Positions 4,080 through 56,350 of a stretch of DNA of 64,000 nucleotides are shown piece by piece. Within the stretch, counting starts at the first letter, position 1, and every line of letters begins with the position of its first letter. Origin of the DNA: Candidatus Poribacteria bacterium (GTDB taxonomy: Bacteria > Poribacteria > WGA-4E > WGA-3G); NCBI GenBank assembly GCA_965208735.1, contig CBDBPM010000002.1, forward strand, positions 733,145 through 797,144, in the 5' to 3' direction. Made by a program: the position numbers and the translations under genes. Under the pieces are notes generated by a model. That model saw only the letters and a program-made list of their open reading frames with translations, was not told where the DNA came from and did no database searches.

Positions 4080-4149
4080 GTGTTATTATAGTCTTAACCA
4101 TCAACTCGTGCTTTAACACTTATAACGGAGGCGAGTTGATGATTAAAGT

Positions 4150-4210
4150 TAACAGTTTTCAGTTTTCAGTTAAGAGGTTTTGATGTAGCAATTTACCAGT
4201 TCTTAACAAA
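4150..4210. repeat. Degenerate third copy of the heptamer-GTTAAGAG...CTCTTAAC hairpin element family (see 8805..8903)
   Basis: The element reads gttttca gttttca gttaagag, then a 24-nt loop, then tcttaac. It is preceded at 4093..4127 by tcttaacc..cacttataac, similar to the right arm of the elements at 8805 and 12451. It lies just downstream of the htrA stop. Confidence 0.3.
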
Positions 4211-4387: not shown

Positions 4388-5104
4388 ATGAAATTGCAAC
4401 TACCAACACTTATTGCTGTCTGCCTTGCTATTCTCCTCATTGGCGGCATCTACTTTTTCTTCGGAGACAAGTCGGAGTTGGGCATCGCTGTCAATTTGGA
4501 AAGTGAAGAGTTCAAACAGATTCGCACGCATGCCACAGATGCCTTCAACGCTGGACAATATCAACAAGCCATTGAGCTTTACACCCAAGCAATGAAGATG
4601 CGTCCTGAAAACGCCGAAATCTTTAACGACCTTGGAGCCGTGTACTACAAACAAGGGATTCAATATGCTGGACCGAATTGGCCCTCATGGGAAAAGGAAT
4701 TGATAGACGAAACACCTGACGCAGCGGTGGCAGAACTCAAAATCGCTATTGATAAAACAGCATCCGGCGCAATCGTGTTCAAAACACGCGATGAAGCCGT
4801 CGCTGACGCTATCGAAGATGAGGCGAAACAATTCGGCGGTCAAGTGTACAGGCAGCGTTGGGAAAATGAAATCACGCTTAATATTCTCATTGGAGAAACA
4901 AAAACCTATCTGTTGCGAGCCAGAGATAACTATCTCTATGCCTTAGATTTGAAACCGACACATAGCGTTGCCTATCGCAACCTCGGTTCGTTCTTTATGA
5001 AGGTCGGTAAAACCGATACGGCAATCGATTACCTTCAAGAAGCACACAAATTAGATCCACGTGATGCCGAGTTGGAAGAATACCTTAACCAATTCAGGAA
5101 ATAA
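4388..5104 (+). CDS. TPR-repeat protein with N-terminal transmembrane anchor
   Basis: 238-aa ORF with an N-terminal hydrophobic helix (LPTLIAVCLAILLIGGIYFFF) and TPR-like repeats (AIELYTQAMKMRPENAEIFNDLGAVYYKQG; AIDYLQEAHKLDPRDAE). Confidence 0.6.
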   Translation: MKLQLPTLIAVCLAILLIGGIYFFFGDKSELGIAVNLESEEFKQIRTHATDAFNAGQYQQAIELYTQAMKMRPENAEIFNDLGAVYYKQGIQYAGPNWPSWEKELIDETPDAAVAELKIAIDKTASGAIVFKTRDEAVADAIEDEAKQFGGQVYRQRWENEITLNILIGETKTYLLRARDNYLYALDLKPTHSVAYRNLGSFFMKVGKTDTAIDYLQEAHKLDPRDAELEEYLNQFRK

Positions 5105-5153
5105 AGCACAAAAATTCTCTCTCTACATCACAGTTTGAGGGAGGAAATCGCTT

Positions 5154-8100
5154 ATGCAGCACAAACTCTGCGCAAATTGTGGGTTTTTGAACCCATCATT
5201 CAAATTTTGCGGTGAATGCGGCATGCCGCTCGACGGCACCTCGCGTTCCGCTGAACTCCCAACAGCAGATACAGTTTCTATCGAACAGGCTTTGCCACAC
5301 GGGGCAGAACGTCGCCAGCTAACCGTCCTTTTTTGTGATATTGTTGACTCCACCGCATTCACCGAAAAACTGGATCCTGAAGAACTCCGAAATCTCTTAG
5401 AAATATACCGGACCTGTATCATGGAGGTGGTTTTAGCACAAAACGGGCACGTCGCGCGCTACTTCGGGGATGGCATCCTCGTTTATTTTGGCTATCCGAT
5501 CGCACATGAAGACACAGCACATCGTGCTGTAAGAGCCGCATTAGGTATTGTCGCTGCTATAGAAACCCTGAATCCGTATCTCCACAAAACCTTCGGCGTA
5601 GAGATTAAAGTTCGGATCAGCATCGATACAGGACGTGTTGTCATTTGGCACATCTCAGAGCAGGAATCTCCCGAAGCGATTGACATCGTTGGTAAAACAC
5701 CGAATCTCGCCGCGAGAATGGAGAAACTGGCAGCACCGAATAACATTGTAATTGGCGATACGACACATCAATTGGTCGAAGGCTTTTTTAACTGCGAGGC
5801 ACTCGGTACTGCCGAATTCCGTGGTATTTCCCAGCCTGTGAACATCTACCAAGTGGCAGGTGAAATCCCCGCGCAAAGCCGACTCGATATCGCCAGTGAG
5901 AGCGGATTGACACCGCTTATCGGACGGGAGCGAGAGGTGGAACGCCTCAAACAAGGATGGGCACAAGCACTTGCAGCCAAGGGACAAGCACTCCTTATTG
6001 AAGGAGAAGCCGGTATCGGAAAATCGAGATGTGTGCAGCTCATTCAGGAACATGTTGAGAGCCACTCGGAGGCCGTCACCTTAGAAGGGAGATGTTCACC
6101 CTATTACCAGAACAGTCCACTGTATCCTATCCTTTCACTGTTTCAAGAACACGTTGTACAGTTTACAAGCACTGATACGGCACAAACAAGACTCGAAAAA
6201 CTTGAAAATTTGCTGCGGGACTATAACGTTTCGACTGTCGGGCAAGATGCCGAAGCGCATATACCGGAAACACTGCCACTCCTCGCTGAATTATTGGAAA
6301 TACCTTTTGAAATACAGCGGCGAACGGAAACCGGCACCGGTGCGCGTTTATATGGCACACCGGTCAAACAGGATACATATCCATCCGGATGGCGGCGAAG
6401 ACAACGACGGCAACAGACGTTAGAAGTACTCGTCCAAGTATTGCTGAAGATGTCAGAACAGAAACCCATACTCTTCGTCGTGGAGGACCTCCACTGGGTG
6501 GATCCGTCCAGTATAGAATTTCTCACACTCTTAATCGAAAAAATCGAAAACGCCAGAATTTTCACAATCTTGTCCTGGCGATCCGACACACACCCCTCAA
6601 TAGTATACAAAAACCGGTACAACGTACAATCCAACGAAAATGGAAACTCACAGACTGCTCCTGATGCGAACCTTATAAATTCTGCTATAGATAGAGAAAT
6701 TTTGGAGAAACTCCTGCGACCCGCATGGGCAAATACACTGCCGTTGGAGGCACTCACACCGCCGCAAGTCGAAACAATGATTCAGCACGTCGCAGGCGAT
6801 ACGCAACTGCCACCAAACCTCTTCACACAAATCGTTGAAATGACTGAGGGAGTCCCACTGTTTGTTGAGGAACTCACACAGACGATGCTTGAAGGCGATG
6901 CGATGGCACTTTCTTCTGACGCATTGGAGGCAACGAGTTCACGGTTTCCCCAAACAATGCAAGTGCCTGTGACGCTACAAGATTTGTTGACAGCACGTCT
7001 CGACGAACTCGGTACAGCGAAGGAGATCGTTCAACTCGGCGCAACGCTCGGTAGAGAGTGGACAGCAGAGCTGCTTCACAAAATTGCAGCCGGAGTCGAT
7101 ATCGGGAATAACATCTTCACCAATTTCGCATCCTTGAAAGATGAATTGGACAAATTAGTAAACGCATTCATCCTCAATCGCAATGAAACGGCTGGCAACC
7201 AATTCCGCTATACCTTTAGGCATCCGCTTCTGCGTGAGACCGCTTATCAATCGCTGTTAAAAAGCAAACGTCAGCAGTATCATCATCAGATTGCAGAGGT
7301 CCTCGAGAACGCGGACGGCTTCCAGCCGGAACTCGTCGCGTATCATTACACCGAAGCCGGACTTCCCGAAAAAGCCGTTGACTATTGGCACAGCGCGGCG
7401 CACCGTGCCTTAGAACGCTCCGCAAACGTGGAGGGTGTTCGCCATATCATGCAAGGACTCACGGCACTTGAAACACTTTCAACGCATATTAACACACCGG
7501 AACCGCGGACGGACGCACACCATCACGATGATCCTGATCGCGTGATGTCCGCAGAAGCCGCCGAACAGCGTGAATTGGAGCTGCAAACGACACTCGGTAC
7601 CGCACTGATTGCGACCAAAGGATATGCATCGCCGGAAGTAGAAGTCGCCTATACACGCGCACGCGAACTGCTGGAAACACTTGAAAAAAGGGAGGAAACC
7701 GCCTTAGCAGATGGATCCGATGCCTTGCTGGATCGGATAAAAGATCTCCGATTCCCTGTGCTGTTCGGGTTGTGGCTCTCCCATCTCGTCCGCGGACGAC
7801 TCCTCTCTGCCCGCGAACTCGGTGAAGCCTGCGTTGCGATTGCCAAGCAAGCGGAAAATCAAGCGTTTGAAGTCGAGGCACACCGCGCCCTCGGGGCCAC
7901 ACTCTACTATTTGAGCGAATTCAACAGTGCATTGGCACACTTGGAGGCAGGCATTGAACGTTATCAACCACAGCACCATCCGGTTCCAGCATTTCTCCAC
8001 TATGTGGCAGAACCCGGCATGACGCTCCTCGCCTATTCTTCACCACTCTTGTGGTGCATCGGCTATCCGAGCCAAGCGGAAGAACGGATCCATCAGGCTG

Positions 8101-8810
8101 TGAGCATCGGAAAGGACTCGAACCATCCGTTTAGTGAGGCAGTATCACTCCACTTCAAAACCGTGCTTTATCAGTACCGAGGTGAAGCGGAGGAAGTGAA
8201 CACATCAGCAACGCAGATGCTACAGATATGTCAAGAGCACGGGTTTTCTGCATGGGAAGCCGCAGCAACCGTGTTGAAGGGTTGGGCATTCGCAGCGCAG
8301 AACTGCCCTGAAGAAGGCATCGCGATGATTCGTGAAGGCATCGACGCTTGGAAAGAGACAAGGGGTGAGTTACTGATGCCTCTCTTTCTCGCGCTTCTTG
8401 GACAGGCACACCAACGTGCAGGGCAATATAGTTTAGCCTTACAGACACTTGACGCTGCATTGCGTGTCATCACACGGACAGGAGAACGCACTTACGCTGC
8501 AGAACTCGCGCGACAGAAGGGTGAACTCTGTCTTATCCTTGCCGAGGAAACTGAGACTGGCAGCAAAGAGAATACGCAATCAACCGTTGCCGAAGCGGAA
8601 TCCTATTTTCAAGAAGCATTAGCGATCGCACGGCAACAAGACGCAAAATCGTGGGAACTCCGAGCTGCGTTGAGCTTAAGCGAATTATGGCGGACGCAAA
8701 ATCGTGGTAAAGACGCATACAATTTACTTCAACCGATATATGCGTGGTTCTCAGAAGGGTTGGATACAAACGACCTTGTGCGTGCCAAAAATCTCTTAAA
8801 AAGGTTATAA
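5154..8810 (+). CDS. Multidomain signalling protein: Zn-ribbon, class III adenylate/guanylate cyclase, AAA/STAND ATPase and TPR
   Basis: 1218-aa ORF with a strong RBS (gggagg). The N-terminus is a CxxC..CxxC zinc ribbon. A CHD cyclase core follows (RRQLTVLFCDIVDSTAF ... GDGILVYFG). Then comes a P-loop NTPase (LLIEGEAGIGKSR) and a long TPR-like C-terminus. It contains one in-frame palindromic insert at 7506..7551. Confidence 0.8.
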   Translation: MQHKLCANCGFLNPSFKFCGECGMPLDGTSRSAELPTADTVSIEQALPHGAERRQLTVLFCDIVDSTAFTEKLDPEELRNLLEIYRTCIMEVVLAQNGHVARYFGDGILVYFGYPIAHEDTAHRAVRAALGIVAAIETLNPYLHKTFGVEIKVRISIDTGRVVIWHISEQESPEAIDIVGKTPNLAARMEKLAAPNNIVIGDTTHQLVEGFFNCEALGTAEFRGISQPVNIYQVAGEIPAQSRLDIASESGLTPLIGREREVERLKQGWAQALAAKGQALLIEGEAGIGKSRCVQLIQEHVESHSEAVTLEGRCSPYYQNSPLYPILSLFQEHVVQFTSTDTAQTRLEKLENLLRDYNVSTVGQDAEAHIPETLPLLAELLEIPFEIQRRTETGTGARLYGTPVKQDTYPSGWRRRQRRQQTLEVLVQVLLKMSEQKPILFVVEDLHWVDPSSIEFLTLLIEKIENARIFTILSWRSDTHPSIVYKNRYNVQSNENGNSQTAPDANLINSAIDREILEKLLRPAWANTLPLEALTPPQVETMIQHVAGDTQLPPNLFTQIVEMTEGVPLFVEELTQTMLEGDAMALSSDALEATSSRFPQTMQVPVTLQDLLTARLDELGTAKEIVQLGATLGREWTAELLHKIAAGVDIGNNIFTNFASLKDELDKLVNAFILNRNETAGNQFRYTFRHPLLRETAYQSLLKSKRQQYHHQIAEVLENADGFQPELVAYHYTEAGLPEKAVDYWHSAAHRALERSANVEGVRHIMQGLTALETLSTHINTPEPRTDAHHHDDPDRVMSAEAAEQRELELQTTLGTALIATKGYASPEVEVAYTRARELLETLEKREETALADGSDALLDRIKDLRFPVLFGLWLSHLVRGRLLSARELGEACVAIAKQAENQAFEVEAHRALGATLYYLSEFNSALAHLEAGIERYQPQHHPVPAFLHYVAEPGMTLLAYSSPLLWCIGYPSQAEERIHQAVSIGKDSNHPFSEAVSLHFKTVLYQYRGEAEEVNTSATQMLQICQEHGFSAWEAAATVLKGWAFAAQNCPEEGIAMIREGIDAWKETRGELLMPLFLALLGQAHQRAGQYSLALQTLDAALRVITRTGERTYAAELARQKGELCLILAEETETGSKENTQSTVAEAESYFQEALAIARQQDAKSWELRAALSLSELWRTQNRGKDAYNLLQPIYAWFSEGLDTNDLVRAKNLLKRL
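7506..7551. repeat. Copy A of the in-frame ~44-nt palindromic element (RPE-like), inside the cyclase CDS
   Basis: The sequence cggacgcacaccatcacgatgatcctgatcgcgtgatgtccg aligns at about 36 of 42 positions with the two copies inside lpxK (12617..12663 and 12957..13000). It is a nested inverted repeat (cggac..gtccg around atcacgatg..cgtgat). It encodes RTDAHHHDDPDRVMS in frame. Confidence 0.6.
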
Positions 8811-8903
8811 GTTATAAGTTATAAGTTATAAGTTAAGAGCGAAAACCGTCTTTGTGAAGTTTACCTCTTAACCAACCACTTATAACTTCTTAACCAACAA
8901 CTA
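8805..8903. repeat. Copy 1 of an intergenic hairpin element: (GTTATAA)x4-GTTAAGAG, a 25-nt loop, then CCTCTTAAC, ending CACTTATAAC..CAACAACTAC
   Basis: A tandem heptamer GTTATAA repeated four times overlaps the TAA stop of the cyclase gene. The 9-bp inverted repeat gttaagag/ctcttaac forms a stem around a variable loop. The same architecture with a different loop occurs at 12451..12550. Confidence 0.6.
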
Positions 8904-9906: not shown

Positions 9907-12471
9907 ATGCTTAAAAACATTAGGATAGCACACCTTCTAAGACATCTCTTCCGATCCTATATGCTGACCGTTATTTTTCTGACGTTCACGCTTTTGTCTG
10001 TAGCGTTTGGACAAGACGATACGATTACTGAGACGGTCACAGAAGGGACACGTAATATTTGGACGCAGGTCAAACTCTACGGTGGCGTGGTCTTAATCAT
10101 CTTTCTTTTTAGTGCTTTCTTTTATCTCCTAAGACTCTTTCAGAAAGACAAACTCTTGAAGACACTCCTTAACAAATATGTCGTCTTTCAGATGAAGGAG
10201 GAGAACAGACGTTACCGAGGCACAATGCGGCTTGAGATCTCAGGCATGGAAATTATCTCCGAGGAATCCCGACAGCGCGGGCATGCCCCGAGTTATATCT
10301 TTAATTCCAAAGAACGTGAAGAACAAATTGTCGCATACATCCGCTACCACGATACGATGAACGAGCGCGAACTACGGGAACGTTCGTGGGAACTTGAGCG
10401 GGTCTACCATCCGCCATTTATCTACAAAATACGGCGGAAAATCCGAAATATGTTCGTCGCCCTCAGAGAAGCCTCAGCAAATGCTATCCGTATGGTGATG
10501 CAAAGCGTCAAAAGTGGTATCGGTGGACGATTTGAAGACTACAATAGAGTATACCAACAAACGGTCGACGCAAAGAAAGGCGAAGGAGATATAACAGGCA
10601 TCGATAGGTTAGACGATTCTACCGCCCACTTGCAGGAACAGGAAACCTATGAACGTCTAATTGAACGCTTGGTCGGTACCCGGATCAAAGTCCGCACGGA
10701 GACCGGAGAATACACCGCTATCCTCAAAGACTATAATCACAAGCATATCGCATTGATGGATGTGAAAGATGGCGACAACAACGGTTACAGAGATCATTGG
10801 AACTATGAACTTGAGTATAAGCAAGATATTAATGCACTGAACCGCCGCGATGACCGCGGCTTACGTGTACTAACAGAAGGCAACGATGAAAACGGCTACT
10901 CTCTCGTTTTTGAAAACAATACGCCTTACCAAATTCAACTTGGGCATGTCGTGCTGCACGACGGTGCCCCCCAATGGGCAAAGAACTTTGAATTCAAATA
11001 CCATATTCAAGCCTTCAGTGTTCAAAAACTTTCAATTGAACCGATAGCGCAACACAACGTAGGCCCGTTTCAACGGATTAGAGCGCGTGAGCGACTTACG
11101 ATCAGAAATTATAAAAAGATTAAACTCGATTTCCGCTCTTTCAGGGATGCTGATATCATTTTCCCGCGAAAATATTGCACTATTGTCGAAAGCGCAGAGA
11201 GATATCAACCCGAACTTTTCAGTTTAAGCGGCTTGACCGACACAATTCTGGACATGAGCGATACCGAGGACATCGCCATCGCAGACAAAGAGGGTAATCC
11301 GATCCACGGTATCAATGTTGTTCACGGATACGTGACGAACGTCAACGAAGAACGCATCGATTTGAAGACGATCGACACCAGCTACGGTCGGCGATGGGAT
11401 GTTGAAAATGCCTTCCGCCATTTTGATAATAAATTCCGTCATGGATTTCCGCTCCATAAAAGGCTCCTACCCATAAATCGCGCCAAGATTACAGCACACG
11501 CTTCTATCGTTGAACAGATACACAAGAACGCCGTTCGACACGAGGCGTTAGCACCGGTCGTTTATCCGGCACGCAGCTTAAATACAGCAGAACAGCGCGC
11601 ACGCCGCCGAAAGTTGATACGTAATCGCATCGTCGGCGGTATAAATGCTACCTTTAACACCAAGTTTTGGAAACCGAATGCTGGAGTTCCCAAGACACCC
11701 GGTGTCACGCGCGCAGAAGTCAAGATGGCAATGCCAATCAAACTTATGGCATTTACGGGTAATACCTCTACAGTCGAATTTCCGATCCTACAACGTTTTG
11801 AATATATTCAGGAACATCACATGATTTATAGGGAGGTCCCGGATCTACGCACCGATCGACTTCCGAAAACCGATATTTTGTGGATCGGCAACGGTGAAAT
11901 TTACAAATCTGGCTATCGACTGAACATTGATGCTGAACACCGGATTAAAAATTTCGTTAGCCAAGGTGGCGTTGCCATCGTTTCCGGACAAGATATCAAA
12001 ACCAGCACCAAACAGCGCCGTGGCACTGGATGGATACCGGAACCGCTCACCGGCATTGAATGTGACGAAACTTATGAGTTATTTCCCACATCACGAGGGA
12101 AACGTTCGCGTATCTTCCAATACCCGAATCCACTGAATGGAAACCACCACACCGATCCAGAGGCAATGGAGCAGCCTCTTATTCGACTCGATGATATGTG
12201 GCTCGATCCACTCGGGAAATGGACATCTCTCGCTAAAACCAATATCCCTGTAGCCGGACTGCCAAGTGACAGGTCTGAAAACGCATCCGCGCTGCTCCTC
12301 CTCCCCTTCCAAAAAGGGTTATACATCGTTACCAGTTTGAAGAATGAGACAGAAGAGGATGTACGCATCAACGACAAAATCATGGAAAATCTGCTCCATT
12401 TTTCCGTCAAATGGCTGGATAAACAACGTTCCCCGCGCAAGTTGGGAATAGTTAATAGTTATAAGTTATAA
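9907..12471 (+). CDS. Large hypothetical membrane-anchored protein (two N-terminal TM helices), function unknown
   Basis: 854-aa ORF with a good RBS (aagggggat). It has two hydrophobic helices near the N-terminus. The C-terminal region (ILWIGNGEIY..VSQGGVAIVSGQDI) is loosely reminiscent of a class-I glutamine-amidotransferase-like fold. No confident family assignment. Its stop codon sits inside repeat copy 2. Confidence 0.5.
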   Translation: MLKNIRIAHLLRHLFRSYMLTVIFLTFTLLSVAFGQDDTITETVTEGTRNIWTQVKLYGGVVLIIFLFSAFFYLLRLFQKDKLLKTLLNKYVVFQMKEENRRYRGTMRLEISGMEIISEESRQRGHAPSYIFNSKEREEQIVAYIRYHDTMNERELRERSWELERVYHPPFIYKIRRKIRNMFVALREASANAIRMVMQSVKSGIGGRFEDYNRVYQQTVDAKKGEGDITGIDRLDDSTAHLQEQETYERLIERLVGTRIKVRTETGEYTAILKDYNHKHIALMDVKDGDNNGYRDHWNYELEYKQDINALNRRDDRGLRVLTEGNDENGYSLVFENNTPYQIQLGHVVLHDGAPQWAKNFEFKYHIQAFSVQKLSIEPIAQHNVGPFQRIRARERLTIRNYKKIKLDFRSFRDADIIFPRKYCTIVESAERYQPELFSLSGLTDTILDMSDTEDIAIADKEGNPIHGINVVHGYVTNVNEERIDLKTIDTSYGRRWDVENAFRHFDNKFRHGFPLHKRLLPINRAKITAHASIVEQIHKNAVRHEALAPVVYPARSLNTAEQRARRRKLIRNRIVGGINATFNTKFWKPNAGVPKTPGVTRAEVKMAMPIKLMAFTGNTSTVEFPILQRFEYIQEHHMIYREVPDLRTDRLPKTDILWIGNGEIYKSGYRLNIDAEHRIKNFVSQGGVAIVSGQDIKTSTKQRRGTGWIPEPLTGIECDETYELFPTSRGKRSRIFQYPNPLNGNHHTDPEAMEQPLIRLDDMWLDPLGKWTSLAKTNIPVAGLPSDRSENASALLLLPFQKGLYIVTSLKNETEEDVRINDKIMENLLHFSVKWLDKQRSPRKLGIVNSYKL

Positions 12472-12550
12472 GTTATAAGTTAAGAGTGCTACTGTCAAAT
12501 GAAGTGCCTCTCTTAACTTATAACCAACAACTAACAACCTATAACTATAA
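12451..12550. repeat. Copy 2 of the heptamer-GTTAAGAG...CTCTTAAC hairpin element; it fills the whole 73-nt spacer between the convergent genes 9907..12471 and lpxK
   Basis: The element reads gttaata gttataa gttataa gttataa gttaagag, then a 24-nt loop, then ctctcttaacttataaccaacaactaacaacc. The stems are identical to copy 1 but the loop differs. It overlaps the stop codons of both flanking genes. Confidence 0.6.
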
Positions 12551-13831
12551 ATCCAACCACTCTAAAATTTTCTCAACGCCTTCTGTGATAACCAACGCGA
12601 CCTCAAGCACAAATATCGGCGGAAGCACGCCATCACGATGAGCGTGATCGCGGGACTTCCGAGGAAGCCCCCGGTTTCCCACAAACGCTTCCAATTTTTG
12701 CGCATCTTTTTGCGTTGTGACAATCAGATCCGCATGTACGGCTTGAAATACAGTGGCAATCCGCACGAAGTCCGCCTCGGTATAAACGTGATGATCGGGA
12801 TACGCCAACAATTCCACACTTTCTGCGGAACACCGCATGAGCGTCGTGACAAACGCATCTGGATTTCCGATCGCACAAACTGCGAGAAGCCGTTTTCCCT
12901 TAACCGCTTCTGAAGTCGAGAGGAAATCTGTTCCTTCCGAGTTTTCGGGGGATGCTATCGGAAGCACGCCATCACGATGAGCGTGATCGCGTGACTTCCG
13001 CAAAGGATAGAAATGGACCGGCTGGTGGACGCTCTCCAGAATCAGCGCATTCGGTGCCAATTGCCGCAATGCCGCTTTAGCGTCTCGTAACATGTCAACT
13101 GTATCTGTATGTGTTAATAGGATAACGTCCGCGCGTCGGAGCGCAGTAGGCGGTTCGCGCAAGCTCCCTACGGGTAAGAGTCGTTCTCTCGCAGCTTGCA
13201 GACCGATGGCTGAATGCGCGGGAACGGTGAGAATATCAACATCACGCGCAAGCTGCCGGTGTTGATATCCGTCATCCAGAAGTAGGACATCTACCCCAAA
13301 ACGCTCAAGCGCGACCTGTCCTGCCTGATAGCGTTGACTGCTGACAACAATCGGAATACCGCTGAGATGTTTCGCCATCATATATGCTTCATCGCCGCTC
13401 TCTTTTAAGGAAGCACATACCCTCTCACCGTCTGAGACAATAGTTACCTTTTCACGCGACTGGCGTTTATACCCGCGTAGCAAAATAGCGACGCGCACCT
13501 TCTCTTTTTCAAGGTGTTTCGCAAGCGCAATAACAGCAGGTGTTTTCCCCGTCCCACCCACAACGATATTACCTACACTGATGACGCGACACGGCAATCT
13601 TCGCGCTTTAAACAGACCGAGTTCATAAAACCGATTGCGTATCCAAACACTCGCGCCATAAAGCCAACTCAGCGGGATTAATGAGAAGCGTAGGGGGCTG
13701 GCAAGAAGCCTTTTCTGGAACGAGGCAAGATCGAAAGGGTCCGTGAGTTTCATAGCGTATAAAGTTTGCGAGTGTACTAAAGTCGCGAAATCTGTAAAGT
13801 TGAAAGAAGGTTTCTTAACAACTTTAGGCAC
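12545..13831 (-). CDS. lpxK: Tetraacyldisaccharide 4'-kinase (LpxK) carrying two in-frame 14-aa palindromic-element insertions
   Basis: 428-aa ORF with the P-loop GNIVVGGTGKTP diagnostic of LpxK. The C-terminal region (AIGNPDAFVTTL..YPDHHVYTEADF..LIVTTQKDAQKL) matches the LpxK C-domain. The peptide RKSRDHAHRDGVLP occurs twice, each encoded by a copy of the ~44-nt palindrome. Confidence 0.8.
   Translation of the reverse strand: MPKVVKKPSFNFTDFATLVHSQTLYAMKLTDPFDLASFQKRLLASPLRFSLIPLSWLYGASVWIRNRFYELGLFKARRLPCRVISVGNIVVGGTGKTPAVIALAKHLEKEKVRVAILLRGYKRQSREKVTIVSDGERVCASLKESGDEAYMMAKHLSGIPIVVSSQRYQAGQVALERFGVDVLLLDDGYQHRQLARDVDILTVPAHSAIGLQAARERLLPVGSLREPPTALRRADVILLTHTDTVDMLRDAKAALRQLAPNALILESVHQPVHFYPLRKSRDHAHRDGVLPIASPENSEGTDFLSTSEAVKGKRLLAVCAIGNPDAFVTTLMRCSAESVELLAYPDHHVYTEADFVRIATVFQAVHADLIVTTQKDAQKLEAFVGNRGLPRKSRDHAHRDGVLPPIFVLEVALVITEGVEKILEWLDL
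12617..12663. repeat. Copy B of the in-frame ~44-nt palindromic element (RPE-like), near the 3-prime end of lpxK
   Basis: The sequence cggcggaagcacgccatcacgatgagcgtgatcgcgggacttccgagg is a nested inverted repeat. It is about 95% identical to copy C, which lies 339 nt away (113 codons, same frame). Confidence 0.65.
12957..13000. repeat. Copy C of the in-frame ~44-nt palindromic element (RPE-like), inside lpxK
   Basis: The sequence cggaagcacgccatcacgatgagcgtgatcgcgtgacttccg is a near-perfect palindrome (cggaag..cttccg around atcacgatgagcgtgat). It encodes LRKSRDHAHRDGVLP in the lpxK frame. Confidence 0.65.
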
Positions 13832-27729: not shown

Positions 27730-27862
27730 GGCAGTACCGAAGGACGCTTCAAGGTCACCTACGCAACCGGACATCTCACCCAAACCGAAATTGAATCGGT
27801 CAGGCTACCAATGGGCACCAGCGAACCCCGACAAGGATTGTGGGCACTCCGCTCACGGTTTG
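27730..27862. repeat. Degenerate copy 3 of the 3-prime end of the LarA-like gene (133 nt, with an internal ~76-nt deletion relative to 22307..22507)
   Basis: 27730..27816 matches 22307..22396 at about 78 of 88 positions (ggcagYaccgaaggacgcttcaaggtcacctacgc...ggctaccaatgggcacc). 27817..27862 matches the core at 22473..22507. It is frameshifted, so it is a non-functional remnant. Confidence 0.7.
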
Positions 27863-27917
27863 GTAGGAGGGGTTTGCAACCCCGAAGTAAATTTCCATAG
27901 AAAGTAAGGAGAACAGC

Positions 27918-29372: not shown

Positions 29373-30080
29373 TTAGTCGCGACCAGAAAACAGTTTTGGT
29401 AATTCAGACAAGCTTTGGATTGTTTCATCCCATCTGCCGGTTTGGGTGCCGTCTCGGTCGATGAGTATTGGACGAATGTCAGCGTTTTTTGCGCCGATGA
29501 TATCTGCTTCGTAGGTATCCCCTACATGCACGGCTTCCTCCGCCGAAACACCGACGGCTGCGAGCGTGTAGTTGAAGATATGTGGATCCGGCTTTGCAGA
29601 TAGGACACGCATATCGTGTGAGGCAACAATTATGTCGAAATAGTCGGCAATACCGAGTCGTTCGGTAAGTGGGTCTAATGGGGTATCCCAATTGGACACA
29701 ATCGCTAACTTGAAGCCAGCATCTCGCAAATGCGCAAGGGTCGGGACAGTGTCATCGTAGAGCGTAGCGGCACTTGCAGCAAAGAGTGAATGTTCGGATT
29801 GCAACAGTTCCCACGTCACCTGTTCTACATGTTCCTGAACACCGAGTTCTCGGACAAATTCGCAATAACTCTCAACGATCTCTTGCATCGTTCCAAGAAG
29901 AGTATGCTTGGTAGGATCGGAACCTGACGCGTCGGCATAGAGATTCTCGCGCGCTGTGTCATAGCGTTCCCAATCAATTTCACACCCATACCGGTCTGTG
30001 ATTCTCTGAAGTCTGGGTCTAAGTGATTCTCCCCAAACGCCCAACGTTTGGTAAAAATCAAAGAAAACTGCCTTTATCAT
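29373..30080 (-). CDS. HAD-superfamily hydrolase, paralog 2 (tandem duplicate)
   Basis: The start is trimmed to ATG 30080 (MIKAVFFDFYQTLGV). It is collinear with 28561..29268 and highly similar to it throughout (..GFKLAIVSNWDTPLDPLTERLGIA.YFD.IVASHD.RV.S.KPD.HIFNY.LAAV.VSA.EAVH.GDTYEADI.GA). Confidence 0.7.
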   Translation of the reverse strand: MIKAVFFDFYQTLGVWGESLRPRLQRITDRYGCEIDWERYDTARENLYADASGSDPTKHTLLGTMQEIVESYCEFVRELGVQEHVEQVTWELLQSEHSLFAASAATLYDDTVPTLAHLRDAGFKLAIVSNWDTPLDPLTERLGIADYFDIIVASHDMRVLSAKPDPHIFNYTLAAVGVSAEEAVHVGDTYEADIIGAKNADIRPILIDRDGTQTGRWDETIQSLSELPKLFSGRD

Positions 30081-30083
30081 TCT

Positions 30084-30173
30084 TTTATGTACCACAAACT
30101 TTTAGTTTGTGACCCTGTCTCAACGGCTGCGACATTATATTCATTTTATGTACCACAAACTTTTAGTTTGTGA
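30084..30173. repeat. Direct duplication of a 32-nt unit (ttttatgtaccacaaacttttagtttgtgacc) containing the palindrome CACAAACTtttAGTTTGTG; the second unit overlaps the queC stop codon
   Basis: Exact 32-nt copies lie at 30084..30115 and 30142..30173. The palindrome centre tta/taa is the queC TAA stop on the minus strand (..K V T N stop equals gtc aca aac taa). Confidence 0.7.
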
Positions 30174-30867
30174 CCTTCTGGAGAGAATAGAGAGTTGGAT
30201 CGGGGATACCCGCCTCTTTAAAGCCCTTTTTTCGGTGCAAGCAACTATCACAGCCACCACACGCTCTGCCTTTCGCGTCAGGATCGTAGCAACTTAAAGT
30301 GAGGCTATAATCGACACCGAGTGCCGTACCGATTTGGATAATTTCCGCCTTCGTTTTATCCATCAGTGGCACCTGGATTGTCAACTTCGTTTTACCTTCA
30401 ACACCGGCTTGTGTCGCAAGGTTCGCCAGCGTCTGATACGCCTCTATATATTCAGGACGACAATCTGGATAACCACTGTAATCAACAGCAGTCGCCCCGA
30501 TAAAAATGGTATCGGAACCGAGTACCTCAGTCCATGCAAGCGCGTATGAGAGAAATATTGTGTTTCGGGCAGGAACGTAAGTTATTGGTATGCTATCGCT
30601 CATCTCCGCATCAGATCTATCCTTTGGAACTTCAATATCCGCTGTCAATGCAGATCTCCCAAAGGTACGAAGGTCAATGTCAACGACTGTATGCTGCTTC
30701 ACGCCTAAAGCATTCGCGACCTTCTCAGCACACTGCAGCTCCACTGTATGTCGTTGACCATACCGGAAACTCATCGCATAGGTCTCGTAACCTTCATCAC
30801 GCGCGATAGCGAGGGTTGTTGTTGAATCTAAGCCGCCACTCAGTAAGACGACCGCTTTTTTAGACAC
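30163..30867 (-). CDS. queC: 7-cyano-7-deazaguanine synthase
   Basis: 234 aa. The N-terminus [14 protein letters not shown] is the PP-loop. The C-terminus has the Zn-binding cluster CGGCDSC, as in QueC. Confidence 0.85.
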
Positions 30868-31556: not shown

Positions 31557-31583
31557 GTAGCACACACAGTTAGTTTGTGCTAC
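31557..31583. terminator. Palindrome gtagcacacacagTTAgtttgtgctac overlapping the MFS-transporter TAA stop; member of the ACAAACTnTTAGTTTGT family
   Basis: The MFS gene ends ..S T N stop, encoded as agc aca aac taa on the minus strand. The complementary arm follows to make a hairpin with the stop codon in the loop. Confidence 0.45.
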
Positions 31584-55000: not shown

Positions 55001-55945
55001 ATGTTATACTTAAGCACAATATCTGAGACAAAATTAGGGGATATTATTTTGAAACAACAAAACGGACCTGATGTATTAGAACCTGACGACACTTTTAGCA
55101 CGCGCATCAATCCCCAGAGAGAAAATAACGACGATACTATTAAACCAGTGCAACACGGCTATACCACCCTCCACGATGCAGCGCGAGACAATGCTCATGA
55201 AGCAGTGGCAGCGTTGGTAGAAAACGGAGCAGATGTCAACGCAAAAGACCGATATGGCTATCCACCTTTGCACTGGGCAGCATGGCACAATGCTTATGAA
55301 GCAGCATCAGTGTTAGTCGAAAATGGGGCAGATGTCAACGCAACAAATGATAAGAATTTTACCCCCTTACACTGGGCAGCATGGAATAATGGACACGAAA
55401 CAGCAGCGGTGTTGATGAACAGTGAAGCAGATGTTAACGCGAGAAACGAAGATGGGGATACACCACTGCACTGGGCAGTATGGCGCAATGTCTACGAGGC
55501 TGAGGCAGTATCGCTCGAAAGCAACGTAAATATCAACCCAAGGGACAAATCTGGTTATACCCTTCTACACTGGGCAGCATGGCGCAACGCTTATAAAACA
55601 GCGGAAATCCTAATCGAAAATGGTGCTGATACGAACGCAGCAAATAACAAAGGATTCACACCGCTGCACATCGCAGCAGAGGACGATACCTCCGAAGTCG
55701 CGACAGTATTGTTAAAAAATAGTGCAAAGGTCAACGTAAAGGACAAAAACGGCGATACACCCCTGCACATCGCAGCAGCATACAATGCATACGAAACAGC
55801 AGGAATCCTACTTGAAAACGGTGCAGATACCGCCGCAGTGAACGACAACGATCATACGCCTTTACATATTGCAGCAGAAAAGAAAGCACACGAAACAGTC
55901 AAAGTACTCTGCGACCACCGAGAGCGAAAGGGATGGTCATGGTAA
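55001..55945 (+). CDS. Ankyrin-repeat protein (about 8 ANK repeats)
   Basis: 314 aa with repeated TPLHWAAW.N..E.A.VL.ENGADVNA blocks. Confidence 0.8.
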   Translation: MLYLSTISETKLGDIILKQQNGPDVLEPDDTFSTRINPQRENNDDTIKPVQHGYTTLHDAARDNAHEAVAALVENGADVNAKDRYGYPPLHWAAWHNAYEAASVLVENGADVNATNDKNFTPLHWAAWNNGHETAAVLMNSEADVNARNEDGDTPLHWAVWRNVYEAEAVSLESNVNINPRDKSGYTLLHWAAWRNAYKTAEILIENGADTNAANNKGFTPLHIAAEDDTSEVATVLLKNSAKVNVKDKNGDTPLHIAAAYNAYETAGILLENGADTAAVNDNDHTPLHIAAEKKAHETVKVLCDHRERKGWSW

Positions 55946-56204: not shown

Positions 56205-56350
56205 TGGGTGGTTCGTAGTAGGGCAATTCTGCGGCGTACTCGCCCAAATTTTGTCCACACGCGGCAAAATTTGTCTTTGCTTTACATTTGCGAAGTGCAT
56301 TATTGCCCGTTCCGACGTGCGATGAATCGCACTACTACGAACCGGGTTTA
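56205..56350. repeat. Copy Y of the 'CTACTACGAA' repeat family, arranged as an inverted repeat (ggttcgtagtag ... ctactacgaacc) around a ~110-nt core rich in internal hairpins
   Basis: The reverse complement of 56208..56248 matches window positions 22..66. 56318..56350 (gtgcgatgaatcgcactactacgaaccgggtttacc) repeats the motif in direct orientation and resembles 61440..61470. It lies inside a 650-bp non-coding region upstream of the GH95 gene. Confidence 0.5.

Follow-up and report, generated by a model that had tools for sequence, protein, structure and literature searches.

A palindromic repeat of 45 nt, inserted in frame within protein-coding genes, is probably a lineage-specific selfish element of Candidatus Poribacteria

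The 64,000-nt stretch of Candidatus Poribacteria DNA considered here (contig CBDBPM010000002.1, positions 733,145 to 797,144; hereafter the window) carries three copies of a short hairpin-forming unit inside intact genes, two of them in lpxK and one in a gene coding for an adenylate/guanylate cyclase protein (Table 1). The unit adds exactly 15 codons to unrelated genes, in either orientation and without disrupting the frame. It is best explained, with a probability of roughly 0.8, as a selfish palindromic repeat restricted to the Poribacteria, which is analogous to the Rickettsia palindromic elements (RPEs) and to intragenic repetitive extragenic palindromes (REPs) but is a member of neither family.

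The three copies had been noticed in a first-pass annotation made from the sequence alone. A 42-nt pattern matched both lpxK copies on the forward strand with no mismatch and gave no match in 100 dinucleotide-preserving shuffles. The third copy was caught by a 23-nt core pattern (7520-7542), and a repeat search of the window grouped all three as a single family (D8), in agreement with the positions given earlier. The two lpxK copies (A and B) differ at one position, an identity of 41/42 (97.6%) where ~95% had been estimated, and between the cyclase copy (C) and copy B 36 of the 42 positions agree, as had been reported. The expected peptides were recovered as well, RKSRDHAHRDGVLP twice in LpxK and TDAHHHDDPDRVMSA in the cyclase. 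In-frame insertion is confirmed, but the size of the unit, given as about 44 nt and 14 amino acids, is corrected to 45 nt and 15 amino acids. All three copies have the same chromosomal orientation. Relative to their genes they do differ, as the annotation held, but it had taken the cyclase copy for the inverted one: copy C is co-oriented with its gene, while copies A and B lie opposite to lpxK. The reading frame of lpxK is intact despite its two inserts, and the uninterrupted cyclase product matches Guanylate_cyc (2.1e-21), AAA_16 (1.8e-19) and TPR_12 in Pfam. A covariance-model (CM) search of the 64-kb window with filters off revealed no copy beyond the three, the next best match reaching 10 bits.

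The unit consists of a 42-nt nested palindrome with an 18-bp stem (CGGAAG-CACGC-C-ATCACGA-TGA-TCGTGAT-C-GCGTG-A-CTTCCG) and of three further bases, best written as 1+42+2. A nested hairpin of 6+5+7 bp is present in each copy. As proposed in the first-pass annotation, RNA folding was checked: the lpxK copies are predicted to fold as hairpins of -23.6 and -27.3 kcal/mol (z = -2.7 and -4.4), and the hairpin of the cyclase copy is eroded (z = -1.2). The stem co-varies across the family. In a set of 32 sequences (one per site plus divergent copies), 95% of the pair cells are paired and changes on both sides were found in 10 of the 18 pairs. This level was reached by none of 500 shuffles, and slid controls were all far lower. 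Since the core was fixed by the search pattern, the informative pairs are those of the outer and middle stems and those of the copies found by synteny. The outer-stem variants are all complementary (CGGAGG/CCTCCG, CTGAAG/CTTCAG, GCGAGG/CCTCGC, CAGCGG/CCGCTG, GGGTG/CACCC), and CGGAGG/CCTCCG occurs at three unrelated loci of OZ244804.1 and at two of OZ240248.1. The same stem variants at unrelated loci of one genome represent the subfamily structure expected of a replicating element. Divergence after insertion is about that of the flanks, with 2-4 differences per 42 nt among the window and the syntenic loci L118 and L121.

One genome per species (GTDB) was scanned with a 19-base core, which gave at least 116 loci, each scored against the full 42-mer. 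Among the matches listed the scores are bimodal, with 34 loci at 34-41/42 and ~80 loci at 29/42 or less. All 34 high-scoring loci listed belong to Candidatus Poribacteria and are spread over 19 assemblies; one of the records of the group is labelled 'uncultured bacterium' but holds a Poribacteria-type lpxK block. The ~80 low-scoring loci were rejected as copies, being codons of a transmembrane motif (...ITMI(V/L)IA...) in high-GC bacteria. A stricter pattern gave 9 loci in JGI metagenome contigs, of which 7 are true copies at four sites, two of these sites being new, and two are chance matches in a membrane-protein motif. One further copy lies on an IMG/VR phage contig encoding a portal protein and a large terminase (L134, UViG_2744054414_000001, 10380-10433; also L131). 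It is intergenic, has the outer stem GGGTG/CACCC and lies 2.4 kb from a TnpB (OrfB_IS605) gene. The related phage contig L135 has no copy, but the pair was rejected as a filled/empty case, the intergenic region being diverged and the indel not clean.

After grouping of orthologues, the copies collapse to ~28 independent sites, of which ~23 lie inside long open reading frames with an upstream start codon. Four loci besides the phage copy are intergenic (L009, L026, L057, L115). Further copies, mostly inside coding sequence and in frame, are what the first-pass annotation had asked to be looked for. The strict core occurs in at least 1-4 copies per assembly among the matches listed, with up to at least 3 on a complete chromosome. 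The proposal of a new family in this lineage stands: all true copies are in Poribacteria records, no Rfam family matched (a weak MIR781 match on a neighbouring intergenic hairpin is spurious), and in the full-text literature no description of a palindromic, MITE (miniature inverted-repeat transposable element) or REP repeat of Poribacteria was found, only CRISPR-related or unrelated papers. Searches at the peptide level were not informative, 15 residues being too short: a composite peptide query for hosts gave none, and a profile of the two LpxK insert regions gave one spurious repeat protein among 1.8 billion representatives.

Filled and empty states of the same sites were compared by aligning four syntenic loci (L118, L119, L120 and L121) to the window at the DNA level. 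At site 1 of lpxK (copy B) the window, L120 and L121 have the unit and L118 and L119 lack it; at site 2 (copy A) it is present in the window, L118 and L121 and missing from L119 and L120. Filled and empty states differ by exactly 45 nt at both sites. In the cyclase gene the window, L118 and L121 carry the insert and L119 has an unambiguous 45-nt gap, and cyclase orthologues exist both with and without the 15-residue segment. Only in L121 does the cyclase gene carry another 45-nt insertion, the fourth of the block, and only there is a diverged copy nested in opposite orientation inside the site-1 copy. These two L121-specific copies share derived bases (CCCATC...GATCGGxCGAC) lacking in the neighbouring older copies, and they accordingly derive from another source copy and not from local conversion. 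Most of 120 LpxK homologues, which are all Poribacteria-like, are free of both inserts. One clade (P0001-P0013) has site 2 filled, and site 1 is patchy, being filled in P0001, P0004, P0014 (partially), P0015-17 and P0056.

The lineage specificity claimed for the insertions is borne out by the presence and absence of 45 nt at three sites, but 'recent', as they had also been called, holds only in a relative sense. The site-2 and cyclase copies are common to relatives which are 85-88% identical in LpxK. In a distant clade (P0087-P0091) a different segment of 15 amino acids occupies LpxK site 2, and its DNA in L132 (P0090 clade) outscores 1997 of 2000 shuffles when aligned to the consensus, although it no longer folds and gives no CM match. 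This segment (GEPKVTDAGEDVEGPLP) is a decayed relic of the element. Insertions are old as well as recent. An unrelated-looking segment of 21-25 amino acids (RQSTVGSQQREDREGYLHETSWFPR) was observed at the same place in L133 (P0110 clade). The site-2 loop is a recurrent insertion hotspot with various inserts across clades.

The way in which the element is read indicates that it is translated. Three of the six frames of the consensus contain stop codons, and only two of the three open frames are used inside genes. The forward frame gives (A/S)EARHHDDRDRVTSE at ~13 intragenic sites, where the element has the orientation of the gene, and the reverse frame gives RKSRDHDHRDGVLP at ~10 sites with opposite orientation; both encode hydrophilic 15-mers rich in His, Asp and Arg. 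The remaining, hydrophobic open frame (GSHAITIIVMACF) is used at none of ~23 intragenic sites, for which the chance would be (2/3)^23, or ~1e-4, if the three were used equally. The restriction to two frames and the hydrophilic peptides suggest that the element is translated and filtered by selection. Host proteins include PriA, RecQ, a class A PBP (PBP1), inositol monophosphatase, LigT, a GAF histidine kinase and a GHMP kinase, as well as AsmA-like, BatA, WD40, FG-GAP, PhyH, GNAT and DUF2126 proteins, and neither the hosts nor the insert positions have a common functional theme. The prediction that the LpxK inserts sit in loops agrees with the structural data. The Aquifex LpxK structures 4EHW/4EHX (PDB) match the window LpxK (E = 1e-47), and neither insert belongs to the aligned blocks. 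AlphaFold models residues 278-292 and 391-405 of the window LpxK (mean pLDDT 74) as non-regular coil with pLDDT below 50; they overlap the lowest-confidence segments (282-286, 292-301 and 388-400), between well-predicted strands and helices.

Several other explanations were weighed against a selfish repeat. One of them, an internal duplication within lpxK combined with a chance match in the cyclase gene, had been named in the first-pass annotation as the case to be eliminated. The two lpxK copies, 339 bp apart, in direct orientation and identical at 41/42 positions, would suit it, and intragenic gene conversion between them is plausible, but the duplication is refuted by further copies, over 40 in number, that lie in unrelated genes across 19 assemblies, by the absence of shuffle matches and by the independent filled/empty histories of three sites. 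The annotation had also considered that distant orthologues might carry the same peptides with no palindrome; most LpxK homologues turned out to lack the segments. It is very improbable that a useful His/Asp/Arg-rich loop, for instance a metal-binding one, was recruited repeatedly with the DNA palindrome as a by-product. Both used frames do give His/Asp-rich hydrophilic 15-mers, and decayed copies persist as peptide loops; however, the two orientations encode different peptides, the loops are missing in close relatives, and intergenic copies exist, one of them in a phage. Such a module would be expected to conserve the peptide and not the nucleotides, and the opposite was observed, the DNA being conserved with its synonymous positions included. 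A stable hairpin within a coding sequence is the type of structure involved in programmed bypassing, and an untranslated insert was considered for this reason, one that the ribosome skips or that is excised from the mRNA, in the manner of yeast mitochondrial byp elements or of the T4 gene 60 gap. This is less probable still. The length of the unit (45 nt) is in every case divisible by three, and no intragenic copy stands in a stop-codon or hydrophobic frame, restrictions that would be needless if the insert were skipped; frame restriction and length together rule out bypassing or splicing.

The strongest competitor is a functional nucleic-acid signal, in which the hairpin would be kept by selection for protein or RNA binding, for RNase action or pausing, or for recombination or replication, with mobility being incidental. 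Compensatory changes preserve the stem, several copies are kept at orthologous sites across species-level relatives, and intergenic copies are fewer than a purely selfish model predicts, all of which would fit a signal. On the other hand, each tested copy is missing in close relatives, and old copies lose the hairpin and yet persist as peptide, as in the cyclase copy and in L132. The element is indifferent to the direction of transcription (~13 sites in the same and ~10 in the opposite orientation), G.U wobbles do not prefer the mRNA strand (7 vs 10), which gives no sign of selection at the RNA level, and neither a functional theme nor an Rfam family speaks for a signal. A function of the hairpin for the host is unlikely, given the flank-like divergence, the lack of G.U strand preference and the close relatives without each copy.

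A selfish repeat is preferred, but a number of observations weigh against it. P0017 (site 1 filled) and P0032 (empty) are 96.5% identical, yet they differ beside the insert, where P0017 equals P0016. Because flanking residues co-vary with the insert in this way, the patchiness of site 1 is at least partly due to homologous exchange of alleles. Copies A and B share a lineage-specific GAGCG variant, and the junction bases of copy B are the same as in L120; their near-identity could have arisen through gene conversion of an old copy at site 1. Neither this near-identity nor the patchiness proves recent transposition. For a selfish repeat, the copy number looks unusually low. Some 80% of the copies are intragenic, where a model of random insertion plus filter predicts at most ~73%, a ceiling that assumes 89% coding density and tolerance of every in-frame position. 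This excess implies either a targeting bias or the loss or under-detection of intergenic copies; the search pattern demanded a conserved core. No consistent direct repeat that would indicate a target-site duplication was found at four filled/empty pairs, and the flanks of 28 sites agree. The three extra bases of the unit vary between copies. Finally, no mobilising enzyme, parent element or half-sites were found in 430 kb of Poribacteria DNA.

Other features of the sites bear on how the element moves. Models with a 2- or 3-nt duplication were rejected, fitting only with mismatches and not across sites. The flanks of the 28 sites are weakly biased, towards T-Y-K-G on the left side and A-R-R on the right side. 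At three of four real empty sites a sequence similar to the left arm (at least 5/6, counted against the left arm of the element or of that copy itself) lies at the junction (TATCGG/AAG, CTCCGG/GAAG and GCTT/GAAGG, the slash marking the junction), and the fourth reaches 4/6; the chance of this is ~6e-4 by a post hoc estimate. Arm-like flanks occur at ~6 of 27 other sites with ~1.4 expected, so that arm-like targets represent a tendency and not a rule. The lpxK-cyclase block holds 3-5 copies within ~7 kb and has received five insertions, while no second copy was found in ~255 kb around 34 other copies or in the remaining 58 kb of the window. Five events in one block, despite the rarity elsewhere, suggest a local preference. 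The local GC skew of the 8-kb loci, taken as a pointer to the replication strand, splits 15 vs 22, with orthologous loci disagreeing in sign. No association with a RAYT (Y1 tyrosine transposase) was seen at the loci examined, where only TnpB/OrfB_IS605 genes occur near some loci, and no CM match was obtained next to TnpB genes.

The lack of duplication, the flank and arm features and the clustering fit movement as a single-stranded hairpin, either enzyme-mediated, in the way proposed for REPs and established for the IS200/IS605 family, or by template switching. The element would thus be selfish DNA spreading at a low rate as a hairpin, with nearby targets preferred and no target-site duplication. 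Selection would purge insertions read with a stop codon or as a hydrophobic peptide and those at positions that the structure does not tolerate, and the survivors would be translated surface loops in enzymes such as LpxK. Copies would then decay at roughly the rate of the flanks, as the cyclase copy and the L132 relic suggest. Candidate movers are a trans-acting HUH/Y1-type enzyme recognising single-stranded hairpins, or template switching during replication, guided by pairing of the element arms with CGGAAG-like targets. A speculative version of the latter, to which only a low probability is given, is insertion by arm pairing that is independent of a transposase and either replication-coupled or locally acting, a mechanism which would be new for bacterial repeats. 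If true, it would jointly explain the missing duplication, the arm-like empty sites, the clustering within 7 kb and the variable but complementary outer stem. A related possibility is that a conserved neighbouring protein acts as a cis-acting enzyme. This membrane-anchored protein of 854 amino acids is encoded between the two hosts and has an IS4-like Y-2-R-3-E motif (YGRRWDVENAF); its IS4/DDE_Tnp_1 matches are sub-threshold, and some homologues bear the name 'transposase' at NCBI. In ~220 homologues, all from Poribacteria, it is 65-94% conserved, single-copy and syntenic; no relative was found in the PDB, and its AlphaFold model is poor (pLDDT 40). It may be the remnant of a domesticated transposase. 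TnpB/OrfB_IS605 genes, which the window lacks near its lpxK block, lie a few kb from that block in L118 (72-1145) and L133 (3421-4575; a resolvase occupies 4550-5158), and no match to the hairpin element lies next to either of them.

In their behaviour, the Poribacteria copies resemble the RPEs (RPE-1 to RPE-8/10; Ogata et al., 2000, 2002), as these are portrayed in PMC10969869 and PMC3733652. Both are selfish palindromic repeats, inserted in frame in unrelated functional housekeeping genes of a single lineage, with presence/absence between relatives and a conserved extra peptide compatible with the host fold. The Poribacteria palindrome also folds as a hairpin (18-bp stem, -24 to -28 kcal/mol), and its LpxK peptides lie in predicted coil. 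Size and lineage do not agree, RPEs being ~100-150 bp long and found in Rickettsia, whereas the Poribacteria unit is a single 18-bp hairpin in 45 nt. RPEs moreover end in a CGTC tag according to PMC3733652, a tag that the Poribacteria element lacks, and roughly half or fewer of them are intragenic, against ~80% here, where copy density is much lower. The resemblance to RPEs noted in the first-pass annotation is therefore one of analogy and not of homology.

REPs are stem-loop repeats tagged with GTAG or CGTC, whose intragenic copies often reside in genes for replication and repair (Di Nocera et al., 2013, PMC3733652). They share with the Poribacteria element the single imperfect palindrome (20-40 nt in REPs, so that 42 nt is just above their range), the intragenic location of some copies, at times twice per ORF and including replication and repair genes (compare PriA and RecQ), and the movement as single-stranded hairpins that is thought to apply to REPs. 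In contrast, neither GTAG/CGTC nor the complement is present at either end of the consensus K-CGGAAGCACGCC...GCGTGACTTCCG-AR. REPs are abundant and mostly extragenic, downstream of genes, while ~23 of ~28 sites are intragenic here. The Poribacteria copies are few per genome among the matches listed, with no extras in ~313 kb, and are not arranged in dimers or clusters; no association with RAYT was seen at the loci examined.

Small non-autonomous repeats able to extend or modify coding sequences are also known from Coxiella burnetii (QMITE1/2) and other ORF-fusing bacterial MITEs (PMC5896051, PMC10969869). MITEs, however, are 70-300 bp long, carry inverted repeats at their termini, are flanked by target-site duplications and can often be traced to a recognisable parent insertion sequence. 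None of these features was found here; no solitary half-sites with the same ends were present in the 430 kb of Poribacteria DNA. The palindrome-associated elements derived from IS200/IS605 (PATEs) have distinct left-end and right-end hairpins, insert 3' of a fixed tetra- or pentanucleotide and leave no duplication; the Poribacteria element shows no duplication, a single hairpin and weakly biased flanks. The small dispersed repeats (SDRs) of heterocyst-forming cyanobacteria, the subject of work by Elhai et al. in 2008, are reportedly mobile repeats of tens of nucleotides with no obvious duplication, with nesting and with in-frame intragenic copies; they differ in lineage and sequence, are shorter and are far more numerous. 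The Poribacteria element is a very short, untagged and predominantly intragenic palindromic repeat in a new phylum, and a much shorter counterpart of the RPEs.

Table 1. Element copies, host genes and further features of the window (positions are those of the window; CM, covariance model).
Feature	Position	Strand	Description
Copy A (lpxK site 2)	12619..12663	+	42-nt core 12620-12661, plus 1 base 5' and 2 bases 3' = 45-nt unit; read on - strand as (P)RKSRDHAHRDGVLP, LpxK residues ~391-405; CM 68.6 bits; junction ambiguous by 2 nt
Copy B (lpxK site 1)	12958..13002	+	Core 12959-13000; read on - strand as RKSRDHAHRDGVLPI, LpxK residues 278-292; CM 69.9 bits
Copy C (cyclase gene)	7509..7553	+	Core 7510-7551; read on + strand as TDAHHHDDPDRVMSA, residues 786-800 of the cyclase protein; older, partly degraded hairpin; CM 62.3 bits
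Host lpxK	12545..13831	-	Tetraacyldisaccharide 4'-kinase, 428 aa; Pfam PF02606 LpxK, E = 4.8e-82
Host cyclase gene	5154..8810	+	Adenylate/guanylate cyclase - AAA_16 - TPR protein, 1218 aa; ORF intact
Gene between the two hosts	9907-12471	+	Membrane-anchored protein, 854 aa
Heptamer hairpins	8790-8888, 12448-12548, 4141-4176		Long imperfect hairpins of tandem heptamers
Second hairpin family	30074-30114, 30135-30175, 31557-31580, 58934-58957, 61317-61357		Apparently intergenic, AT-rich; tandem pair at ~30.1 kb
Tandem repeats	23078-23887, 25031-25756, 55157-55838		Intragenic; periods 126, 66 and 99 nt
Distant inverted repeats	2-61 vs 56212-56311		38 nt at 95%, 23 nt at 100%
Direct repeats	22302-22516 vs 26816-26874 and 27724-27863		59-77 nt at 88-92%

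Further repeats were noticed in the window (Table 1). The heptamer hairpins have one arm of GTTATAA/AAGTTAT and a complementary arm of CTCTTAACTTATAACC..., and they occupy the interval 3' of the cyclase stop codon and the one that separates lpxK from the convergent 854-aa gene. They resemble a lineage-specific family of intergenic repeats with a bidirectional, terminator-like character. In L007, L074 and L107, the element copy lying upstream of the PBP1 gene is flanked by comparable runs of a heptamer (GACTGCT). A second family of small hairpins has an 8-bp stem, GTA(C/G)CACAAACT(T/G)TTAGTTTGTG(A/C)C. The intragenic tandem repeats look, by unit length alone, like WD40, leucine-rich and ankyrin repeats, and in relatives WD40 families were assigned. 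Sponge symbionts typically possess repeat proteins of this eukaryote-like sort. The distant inverted and direct repeats suggest paralogous genes or a duplicated segment.

The element adds an uncultivated phylum associated with sponges to Rickettsia and the few bacteria with REPs in which selfish DNA occurs inside coding genes, and it does so in a form of 15 codons. For the hosts it represents a natural experiment on the tolerance of essential enzymes (LpxK, PriA, RecQ, PBP1) to loop insertions, and it shows the birth and decay of new peptide segments. The filled/empty polymorphisms are usable as strain markers for Poribacteria populations. The lack of duplication, the arm-like targets and the local clustering point to a mobilisation route that is worth testing. 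In annotation, these segments of 15 amino acids should be taken neither for lineage-specific functional motifs nor for assembly errors.

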